Below, piece after piece: positions 55,601 through 58,600 of a stretch of DNA of 64,000 bases. The number at the start of each line of letters is the position of its first letter. Position 1 is the stretch's first letter. Made by a program: the position numbers. Origin of the DNA: Escherichia coli (lineage in GTDB: Bacteria; Pseudomonadota; Gammaproteobacteria; Enterobacterales; Enterobacteriaceae); NCBI RefSeq assembly GCF_044324785.1, contig NZ_CP172127.1; one strand, 5' to 3'.

Positions 55601-58600
55601 GGATTGATACAAGGACACCGACGACTTTTTTAGAGCAGTTTAATGCTGTAAAAGATAAAAAGAAGGCATCTTATAAGAGATTTACAATTCTTCCATCCGG
55701 TGAAATTGTTGAATAGCGCATCCCTGCGCTATATTTTAAATAAACATAAGAATAAACATCAGAAGTTCTTCGTATCTGATACCATACTGATAGCCAGCAG
55801 GTTTAATAATAACCTGCCTTCCTGTGTAATATTCCTCGTCGTACCACTCTCCTGTTTCATTGTTTTTAACACTCCTAATCAATACCTCTGGAGCATAAAT
55901 ATCATCCCATTCATCATAACACCAGAACGCATAGTTATTAGGGTCAAGACCGTATTTTCTGAGAATATTACCTACAGTTTGTGCACCAACGCCGAAATGA
56001 ATCCGAGCGCCATCACTCTTGATCTTTACTGCATCTTTAAATTTAAACCTCCAGATATTTTCCTTTATTTCAAGCGCAGCAAGACGCTCTGATTCTGTTG
56101 TTTTCTCGTCAGCCTCAATACGCAATTTCAGCTCTTCATTCGACGTGTTGATACTGCCAGTACCAGCGTATACCTGTGACCATCGAAATGCTGATGTTCC
56201 GTTTGAGTTAACATTATCAACAGTTGGTTTTATAAGGCCAGAAAAATGAGTTTCAGGTGTATTAATATATGTATATGCACCTGCTGTACTACGAGTCCTT
56301 AACTCAAAGCTGTCTATATCAACACCAGTCCTACGAATTATAAGGAAGTTATTTCCTGCGGAACCAGTATCGGTTTGAGTGCTAACAGACAATCCGTTTC
56401 GTGTATCAATACGTATATTCTTCCCGTTCTCCAGCGAAGCAGAATTATGTAGATACAGCGAGTTGTCAGTGTAGAGATTGTGTTTACCTACATTGCTAAA
56501 TGTATAAGTATTGCTTGTGTTATCACTGTTCCTATGGAATTGCTGAAGAGTGTAGGCAGAAGATGCTCCGTATCCATCACAATGGAAATTTCTGCACAGC
56601 TGCAAATCGAATAACAATACGGTGTCAGCATTAATGCTCACATTATTAAAGCATGTTGCAAAGTTGGCACCATACTGTGAATTGGAATCGCCAATCTGTG
56701 CGCACACATCAAGCAAACCAAAAGTTACATTGGTAAAGTTATTTGCATCACCGGCGTCAAGAACAATCCCTTTCTTAGTCCCTGAATACCCTCTGGCAGT
56801 GCCGATCTCAACTCCCTGGAATGAACACACGCGAGCACGACTAAGCTTAAGACCAACCCATTCCAGACCATGATCGTAACCTTTTGCTGCGCGGTGAATA
56901 AACATACCATTCATGATGAGAAGGAATCTGTTATCAAGCCGTACTGGTTCAAGTTGGGCATTAATACCAACATTTGTGCATATACATTCACCATAAGCAT
57001 AACGATTCGTTTCAAATATACGATCATCAGCGTCGTAAATGCCTCGTAATGCCTTGGCGGCATCAATATTAAGCAATGTAAAATATGTCTTCTGCTTAAT
57101 TTCAAAAAAATTTGCAACATTATGCGTTGTGATATCACTCACACGCATTGATAAAATCCCCTCTTCTGGAGCGGTGCGAATGAATCCATCAAGGAACTGT
57201 TCATTATAACTTTTGGCTATCTGATAACATCCAACAGCATCAATGCGTTCGATTGTGAACTGCCAACTATCACCACAGTTAAAAGACCATCTCCAGCCGT
57301 ATTTCTGAGCGAATTCATCATATTCAACATTTGCAGGTTCAGAACAGAAAGATAAAAATCTAAATGTTGGTTTTGGCCTTAGATGGTTAATCCCGGAACC
57401 TCTTGGGGTATATATGGCATTATCTCCATTCCCACCTTTTGTTTTAACTGTAAGGTGACTTAAACCAAATTCAATATCATATTTAGTTGGTGCGGCGAAA
57501 ACAAAGCCGTCTTTTGGTGATGTGGTATTGTCAAACACAATAACCGTTTCACCCTGCCCATCACCGCACATATTTACTGGTGGTATATTAACGGGGCCAG
57601 TCAAACTATATGTTCCAGTTGGCACATATAGTTTTCCACCCTCTCCAATAGCATTTGCCGCTGCAATAAATGCCGCCGTATCATCGTTAACACCGTCACC
57701 TTTCGCCCCATAATGCTGTGGCGTAATTAACAGCATACGGTCAGAAAAAATCTCTGTCCTAAGTTGATCAGGATCGTATTTTAATACATTTGGAAAATAA
57801 AACTGCTGAGTGCCATATGCATCATATACAGCCATAGAATGGCCTTGCACGGTAACGAATTTGGCAATCTGTCCGTTATATACCGGATAACCAGCAGCGT
57901 TAATAATGATTGGTTGAGAAACAGGAACGTGAGAACCGTCTTCGTTCTCTACATAAACCGGAATCTGGTTTTCAGGATTTACCGGGTCAGTGTCAATTTT
58001 ACCGATATAAATTTTTCCATTAGCATTTGCTTTAAACGAGCGAGCTAAAGTGAATAACTGACTTGGTTGTGAAACAACAACATTGGCATTTATTGAATCT
58101 GTCATTTAATTTACTCCAGATACAAGGAATCGCCGCAGCATGGCTACGGTGAATTTTGGGCATAAAAAACCCAGCCGAAGCTGGGTCGTTGCGTTGGTTA
58201 TCTGTCAGTAGTTATGTACTGAAGGAGGTAATTCTTTATTCTTAAGTCTCATCCATGCGGAAATATTCGTTGGTCCGTCTGGCTCATTAATATCAACATC
58301 TCGTGTGTGATTGATTAAAACGTCTCTCGCCATTCCGATAACATACGAGAATTCATGACCGTAGTCGTAGCATCTGCCGGAATAGTTCGATTGAATTTGT
58401 TTCAGCGCCGGATACAGTTCGCGGAATAATGCCTGTGAGCGGTTGGCATAATCCCATAACCATACAAGGCTGTTTGCTTCTTTTGCAGAAAGCTCGTTGG
58501 TTTTCTTCTCTTGTTTGCCAATGAACTCACCTTCAAGCACTACCCTGTGGATGTACTCTACGGCCAGCGGGATTTGTTCAATTGAAAGTTCATCAATGCT

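Follow-up and report, generated by a model that had tools for sequence, protein, structure and literature searches.

How is a tailspike put together when its P22-type adaptor is followed by an unrelated receptor domain, and which glycan would such a spike target? The question is raised by a gene at 55736..58105 on the minus strand of a 64,000-nucleotide stretch of Escherichia coli DNA (RefSeq assembly GCF_044324785.1, contig NZ_CP172127.1), the whole of which we refer to as the window. From the open reading frame (ORF) list and its translation, the gene encodes 789 aa, with an ATG start and a GGAG Shine-Dalgarno sequence 8 nt upstream. We read it, with a probability of roughly 0.8, as the tailspike, equivalent to gene 9, of a P22-like prophage (Lederbergvirus type) in the E. 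coli chromosome, a three-module mosaic that ends in a predicted self-cleaving chaperone. Judged by sequence comparison, at least three exchangeable modules make up the spike, namely a P22-type adaptor, an unrelated beta-helix, and a stalk with an S74 chaperone. The K1-specific phage CUS-3 already provides a precedent for this self-processing modular design, and the spike described here is an uncharacterised further example of it.

Modular architecture of the tailspike

The best PHROG families of the protein are all tail spike or tail fibre families. It is 99% identical to database cluster P0001, one of two clusters that hold this spike type (300 member sequences in P0001, 188 in the other), and RefSeq names the 97-98% identical E. 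coli copies ‘phage tailspike protein’. All genome counts below refer to 5426 complete E. coli genomes, a set to which the window's strain does not belong; the nearest spike copies in complete E. coli genomes have 96-98% DNA identity. Antisense ORFs within the gene (e.g. 55700..56092, plus strand) were treated as spurious. A sequence-only reading of the window had proposed a chimera of a P22-type adaptor, a different beta-helix and an S74 chaperone, with parts of ~110, ~550 and ~130 residues. Pfam and phmmer searches against the PDB bear this out, with parts of 114-120, 534 and 135 residues, and coincidence cannot account for the agreement. The features of the gene, all on the minus strand, are as follows:

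55736..58105, tailspike gene, 789 aa, 87.9 kDa precursor
57764..58096, head-binding (tail-hub adaptor) domain, residues 4-114 (Pfam PF09008)
57713..57748, linker and first recombination junction, residues ~120-131 (12 residues), from the ends of DNA matches and AlphaFold2 (AF2)
56486..57712, right-handed parallel beta-helix, residues ~132-540, predicted glycan-binding and depolymerase domain
57269-57271, 57062-57064 and 56987-56989, invariant carboxylates D279, D348 and E373, from the alignment of homologues
56261..56485, post-helix beta domain, residues ~541-615, AF2 beta strands with pLDDT 46-77
56144..56260, predicted triple-beta-helix stalk, residues 616-654, with D630, R641 and T654, starting at the second recombination junction
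55739..56143, C-terminal intramolecular chaperone domain (CIMCD; peptidase S74 type), residues 655-789, from phmmer and Foldseek
56126..56143, autoproteolytic motif S655-N-E-E-L-K660, predicted scissile bond between T654 and S655

At the N-terminus, the Pfam Head_binding model (PF09008) covers residues 4-114 with an E-value of 1.4e-64 and 215.8 bits against a 24-bit cut-off (profile positions 3-113 of 113). In phmmer searches of the PDB, residues 1-121 align with Sf6 gp14 (7e-61) and P22 gp9 (about 1e-49), confirming that the N-terminal ~110 residues are close to the P22 tailspike adaptor. Identity over the head-binding domain is 92% to HK620, 84% to Sf6 and ~72-76% to P22. Residues 1-~120 thus form the conserved P22-type head-binding domain, the part that docks the spike trimer to the tail hub.

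After residue ~121, no sequence similarity was found to the catalytic domains of P22, Sf6 or HK620. Full-length P22 chains (2xc1 and 8tvr) align over residues 2-119 only, in agreement with the proposal that the central part is unlike the P22 endorhamnosidase, and the P22-tail Pfam family has no match in the spike. In an AF2 monomer model built from 28 homologues, residues ~130-530 form a long parallel beta-helix with pLDDT >90, and the domain belongs to the pectin-lyase-like right-handed parallel beta-helix fold. Pfam Pect-lyase_RHGA_epim (PF12708) matches residues 131-200 (9.6e-11), which is the N-terminal cap only. The ‘pectate-lyase-like repeats’ noted from the sequence thus hold at the level of the fold and no further, as none of the four GH28 signature motifs (NTD, G/QDD, G/SHG, RIK) occurs in the central domain. 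The spike also falls outside the GH58 endosialidases: the PF12217 beta-propeller and the beta-barrel, which CUS-3 has along with the full stalk model, are absent, and only the last 40 positions of End_tail_spike match, weakly. The post-helix domain that follows has conserved residues at K562, D579, N586, R592, E601 and R603.

Predicted self-cleavage of the C-terminal chaperone

Residues 612-789 match chaperone-bearing PDB chains in phmmer searches, with alignments beginning at 612-621. E-values are 4.8e-20 for the fibre of the Klebsiella phage Kp7 (7y5s), 2e-14 for T5 pb1 (4uw8), 2.4e-10 for the K1F CIMCD (3gw6) and 2.2e-8 for the GA-1 appendage (3gud). Foldseek matches the domain to 3gw6 and 4uw8 with a probability of 1.00. 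The S74 chaperone expected at the C-terminus is therefore present, with homology to 7y5s, 4uw8, 3gw6 and 3gud over residues 612-786, and it is of the type known from K1F, T5 and phi29. Just before it, Pfam End_tail_spike gives a weak match over residues 615-654 (E 6.2e-4, 20.3 bits against a 25-bit cut-off, profile positions 120-160 of 160), and the matched part of the model is the segment that precedes the chaperone in endosialidases.

The 14-residue motif singled out earlier for the catalytic Ser-Lys pair corresponds to residues 655-668, and both residues are found there, in register with T5 pb1 and K1F. In gap-free alignments, S655 lies opposite the alanine of the Ser-to-Ala crystal constructs T5 pb1 S1264A (4uw8) and K1F S911A (3gw6), and K660 lies opposite the lysine five residues downstream in both proteins (Lys1269 and Lys916). 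D630, R641 and T654 likewise align without gaps with T5 Asp1239, Arg1250 and Thr1263. In the mechanism shared by T5 and K1F, Arg1250 of the neighbouring chain lies between Asp1239 and Thr1263, and Lys1269 activates Ser1264 for the cut between Thr1263 and Ser1264 (PMC4690869). By sequence alignment, all five residues of this mechanism (D630, R641, T654, S655, K660) are kept in the window's spike. The motif T-S-[D/N]-x-x-x-K is kept in every family member that bears the domain (22-24 of the 28 aligned); six of the 28 have other C-terminal ends in place of the chaperone and diverge after about residue 590-610.

From these alignments we infer autoproteolysis between T654 and S655. After translation, three chaperone domains would associate and template the fold of the intertwined stalk. 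In a correctly formed trimer, R641 of the neighbouring chain would complete the D630/T654 site, and K660 would activate S655 for the cut. Cleavage would leave a mature subunit of 72 kDa and a free fragment of 16 kDa; the computed masses of the predicted products are 72.0 kDa (residues 1-654) and 16.0 kDa (residues 655-789).

Central beta-helix and candidate active site

A full phmmer scan of 1.8 billion representatives gave 32 relatives at E<1e-30 and 97 at E<1e-10. D279, D348, E373, N382 and G355 are invariant in 39 of 39 aligned homologues, down to ~25% identity, and the spacing of 25 residues between D348 and E373 amounts to about one coil. On the alignment, D348 and E373, with D279, are likely candidates for the catalytic carboxylates. 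Since D348 and E373 lie one coil apart, with D279 as a third carboxylate, a glycoside hydrolase is favoured over a lyase as the more likely chemistry of the predicted depolymerase; a lyase is the alternative to be taken seriously. As part of the virion, the beta-helix would bind and most probably cleave a host surface polysaccharide. Fold searches of BFVD and the PDB returned generic beta-helix and CIMCD relatives only, with no match of known substrate close enough for transfer. The lyase KflA of coliphage K5A (2x3h) and the phi29 pre-neck appendage gp12 (3gq7/3suc) resemble the domain at fold level only (14-16% identity) and lack a P22-type adaptor; their substrates are heparosan and teichoic acid, respectively.

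Module borders and exchange

DNA matches limited to the head-binding domain end at about residue 120. Where the same receptor module stands behind a different N-terminus (TUM9803, AR_0085, NRZ14408 and others), the DNA match starts at residue 131, and the protein match to phage PSK1 starts at residue 132. The AF2 model has pLDDT <50 over residues 116-125. The module also occurs behind T7-tail, Tail_spike_N or no P22 adaptor in unrelated phages; in its metagenomic relatives the adaptor is PF18668 or PF03906, or none can be recognised. In six E. coli records, a second prophage type carries an unrelated 200-aa N-terminus in front of the same module at 95-100% identity.

A second junction lies at residue 616 (window position 56259), at the start of a 99.4%-identical DNA block shared with the P22-like spike of TUM9803 (L013:5692-8058); the block spans the neighbouring acetyltransferase gene and residues 616-789. 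The TUM9803 spike has 54% protein identity over residues 396-615, partly unalignable as DNA, and before residue 396 it has 86-93% protein and 87.6% DNA identity. Divergence from the window at 56260-56920 forms a localised hypervariable stretch over the distal beta-helix and post-helix domain, which may represent a specificity variant. TUM9803 carries two copies of the receptor module, one on a non-P22 adaptor (L004) and the diverged one on a P22 adaptor (L013). Strain 2018-10-1CC also carries two copies (L007 and L012), an intact one at dacD and, at torT, an IS1-truncated remnant still accompanied by the acetyltransferase. To our reading, one new element here is the placing of module borders at DNA level, at residues ~131 and ~616.

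Prophage setting

The prophage features around the spike gene are as follows:

58106..58204, minus strand, bsq1 boundary sequence of ~100 bp, with a terminator-like hairpin at 58164-58185 and the spike ribosome-binding site
58205..59658, immI region, with ant at 58205-59083 (minus), arc at 59152-59376 (minus) and mnt at 59404-59658 (plus)
54868..54951, prophage-end segment common to related P22-like prophages, from blastn of 53000-60000

The final stretch of the P22-like prophage runs mnt, arc, ant, bsq1, spike, accessory gene and prophage end, and the spike gene has the position expected of a P22-type tailspike. Pfam assigns Bro-N and P22_AR_C to ant, Arc to arc, and Arc and Repressor_Mnt to mnt, and the immI gene order is the same in CUS-3 and LSC52. 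The locus is collinear with CUS-3 and with E. coli prophages bearing P22 coat, portal, gp4, gp10 and ejection genes. The bsq1 segment is nearly identical in the window, CUS-3 (where it is annotated ‘bsq1; boundary sequence’), LSC52 and 2018-10-1CC, a likeness that also holds where another gene lies upstream, and it is probably a recombination joint for spike exchange. When window positions 53000-60000 were compared by blastn with the loci L002, L005, L007, L008 and L012, homology began at 54868.

Just outside this prophage end lies a C-terminal integrase fragment (54290-54655, plus strand), and beside it an island at 45680-53493 with an AbiEi/AbiEii toxin-antitoxin pair (45680-47390) and a type I restriction-modification system (hsdR/M/S, 47632-53493). 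From this arrangement, a defence island and a P22-like phage seem to share one integration site in tandem. Chromosomal genes follow further out, from the region of betT, an inverse autotransporter and pao. Also chromosomal are a gene for a 1417-aa inverse-autotransporter (intimin/invasin-like) adhesin (18359-22612, minus strand) and a CS1-type fimbrial operon with a CooC/TcfC-like usher (28026-34866, plus strand).

Comparison with known phages

The closest known parallel is CUS-3, whose spike combines Head_binding (1-113), endosialidase domains and Peptidase_S74 (818-878), with the same S-x4-K motif. Its head-binding region is 75% identical to the window's spike over residues 1-143, and its gene order (ant, bsq1, spike, acetyltransferase, att/int) is that of the window. 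The catalytic part differs: in CUS-3 it is a six-bladed beta-propeller endosialidase for the K1 capsule, whereas here it is a beta-helix. CUS-3-type catalytic and chaperone DNA was found in 181-194 of the 5426 genomes, and a megablast-detectable P22-type head-binding segment in 1096. The window's spike type is rarer than the CUS-3 type (about 11-14 genomes). We judged the frequency of S74 domains by the count of CUS-3-type spikes, as the search with head-binding homologues gave almost only short fragments; on these counts, a cleavable chaperone at the P22 spike position is common in E. coli. A review takes CUS-3, HK620, Sf6 and P22 as its model case of modules being exchanged while the N-terminus stays conserved (PMC5380687). 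Receptor-domain swapping is the norm in P22-like phages. The suggestion that a specificity swap and autoproteolytic maturation would both be unusual in a P22-like phage is thus not supported, CUS-3 having the same layout at the same position.

Other relatives share parts of the design. PSK1, a virulent T7-like phage of uropathogenic E. coli, has the same beta-helix, stalk and chaperone (57% identity over residues 132-784), but its adaptor consists of a T7 tail-fibre N-domain and Tail_spike_N, and no acetyltransferase adjoins it; a literature search on phage PSK1 found nothing relevant. The 860-aa ‘GH28-related’ spike of the second prophage type (e.g. TUM9803) has the module at 95-100% identity, with its unrelated 200-aa N-terminus and again no adjoining acetyltransferase. 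K1F endosialidase (3gw6) and T5 pb1 (4uw8) have the homologous stalk and chaperone with the five mechanism residues in common; they differ in the receptor part (a beta-propeller in K1F, a bullet-shaped lectin domain in T5) and in the virion attachment modules, and cleavage in the window's spike is a prediction. In P22 gp9, Sf6 gp14 and HK620 gp9 the C-termini are a retained beta-prism or ‘caudal fin’, without S74 and without autoproteolysis. Two phages were set aside as independent examples of the design: the spike of vB_EcoP-720R6 has 981 aa, the length of that of CUS-3, falls in the CUS-3 clade and is probably of CUS-3 type, and NM-3 is epsilon34-like.

A linked O-acetyltransferase

One further gene adjoins the spike:

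55045..55716, plus strand, hexapeptide-repeat (CatB/Vat-like) O-acetyltransferase (Pfam Hexapep)

The acetyltransferase gene is convergent with the tailspike gene and ends 19 bp from the spike stop codon. RefSeq copies start at least 15 nt further in, and scores against the NCBIfam CatB and Vat models are far below the cut-offs. Nine E. coli records have the gene, and the spike type occurs in every one of them. The locus was inspected in six of the nine, and each time the gene lies directly beside a P22-type spike or what is left of a truncated one. One prophage, collinear in other respects, is missing exactly 54952-55723, which indicates that the acetyltransferase behaves as a discrete inserted gene. 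By analogy it is a probable receptor-modifying accessory gene (moron): in CUS-3, siaK1 is followed by neuO, which encodes a hexapeptide-repeat O-acetyltransferase for the K1 capsule, and here the spike is accompanied by the convergent acetyltransferase. The two differ in that neuO has phase-variable heptanucleotide repeats, of which none was seen in the window's gene. In lysogens the acetyltransferase would probably modify the glycan of the spike, much as the K1 capsule is modified by NeuO in the case of CUS-3. The pairing of spike and acetyltransferase, parallel to siaK1-neuO of CUS-3, is new here.

Target glycan

It had been hoped that the central domain might reveal the polysaccharide it targets; neither a fold or sequence relative nor a glycan locus of the lysogens named one. 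The receptor domains of the lysogens are 98-99% identical to the window's, with 6-9 conservative substitutions. LSC52 and A10, which represent independent integrations (dacD and torT), both have an O17/O44/O73/O77/O106-family cluster, which is found in 94 of the 5426 genomes, while 2018-10-1CC is O154 and GF4 is O21. A single O serotype was accordingly rejected as the target, with three O clusters (O17-family, O154 and O21) under near-identical receptor domains. As a prophage can outlast a switch of O antigen, the O antigen is a weakened candidate for the target. Some enrichment of the O17 family among the lysogens remains unexplained.

In 2018-10-1CC, the one lysogen in which the site was read, there is no kps capsule cluster at pheV (yghD is followed directly by pheV), so a group 2/3 capsule is not supported as the target in that strain. 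The colanic acid cluster is present in all three rfb regions examined (LSC52, GF4 and 2018-10-1CC). A link to colanic acid is nevertheless not supported, as the spike has no similarity to WcaM and the PHROG ‘colanic acid degradation’ family matches spike residues 2-196 only. From lysogens of O17-family, O21 and O154 type, one of them without kps, the target could be serotype-independent, for example colanic acid, enterobacterial common antigen (ECA), a core type or an undescribed glycan. Spike and acetyltransferase might form a cassette directed against some glycan other than a single O serotype or a group 2/3 capsule, a tentative suggestion that we think improbable on present evidence.

Weighing of alternative explanations

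A number of points count against the reading of the gene as a self-processing tailspike of a P22-like prophage. Cleavage, trimerisation and enzymatic activity are all things that we infer. The stalk (residues 616-654) has pLDDT <50 and the segment 616-656 is unreliable in the monomer model, and the cleavage site is predicted from alignment; low values are expected of an intertwined stalk that forms only in the trimer. The Pfam Peptidase_S74 model (PF13884) scores 19.5 bits over residues 655-719, under its 22-bit gathering threshold. This could mean that the C-terminal domain is homologous to S74 and stays uncleaved as a distal structural or receptor-binding knob, the more so as six beta-helix homologues lack the domain, so that the helix is not strictly dependent on a chaperone, and as the C-terminus of the P22 spike is itself an uncleaved auto-chaperone (PMC4690869; PMC3357383). 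PSK1 and many spike homologues pass the PF13884 threshold, however, which points to the limited sensitivity of a short 58-position model. The five mechanism residues are in register with two solved homologues that cleave experimentally, the T-S-[D/N]xxxK motif is kept in all domain-bearing family members, and a retained chaperone blocks receptor binding in T5 (PMC4690869). We therefore give an uncleaved domain very little weight.

Membership of GH28, as implied by the RefSeq name ‘GH28-related’, was rejected, since the motifs are absent and the resemblance of the beta-helix to polygalacturonases is one of fold alone. Instead of a glycoside hydrolase, the helix could be a polysaccharide lyase or epimerase-type enzyme whose substrate is a capsule or exopolysaccharide containing uronic acid; this is unlikely in view of the paired carboxylates, and it deserves to be kept in mind. 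The helix could also bind its glycan without catalysis, which would make the spike an adhesin-type fibre in the manner of T5 pb1; D279, D348 and E373 are strictly invariant down to ~25% identity, as is typical of active sites, and P22-like podophages must penetrate a glycan layer, both of which make binding alone very improbable. As to the receptor, near-identical receptor domains stand beside three O-antigen clusters and one lysogen without kps at pheV, and the link of the acetyltransferase to the receptor is by analogy with CUS-3 only. The prophage itself may be defective: an IS5-family (IS903-group) transposase (59742-60710, plus strand) lies directly beyond mnt, 1.6 kb upstream of the spike, and the window holds only the last ~9 kb of the prophage, the remainder lying outside. 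Together with the truncated copy of the same spike beside IS1 in 2018-10-1CC, this would fit a spike gene that is an unused relic, its mechanism being historical. Against such a relic, the ORF is intact, with its ribosome-binding site and conserved upstream boundary sequence, and region by region it has 98-100% identity to copies from prophages with full virion gene sets, so we regard a relic as rather improbable. The preferred reading remains that of a self-processing, three-module tailspike.

Implications

The known rules of tailspike modularity are confirmed and unchanged by this locus, and the points of moderate interest are the linked acetyltransferase and the receptor question only. With this spike, the known set of E. 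coli phage depolymerases gains one more receptor-binding module, as yet uncharacterised. Its borders (~131 and ~616) and the predicted cleavage site between T654 and S655 are defined well enough for expression constructs and spike swaps. Paired with the acetyltransferase, the spike gives a second case, open to test, of the endosialidase/NeuO arrangement of CUS-3, in which a depolymerase stands beside a receptor-modifying enzyme. If the target were indeed serotype-independent, the cytoplasmic prophage acetyltransferase would represent a new receptor-masking or seroconversion function.

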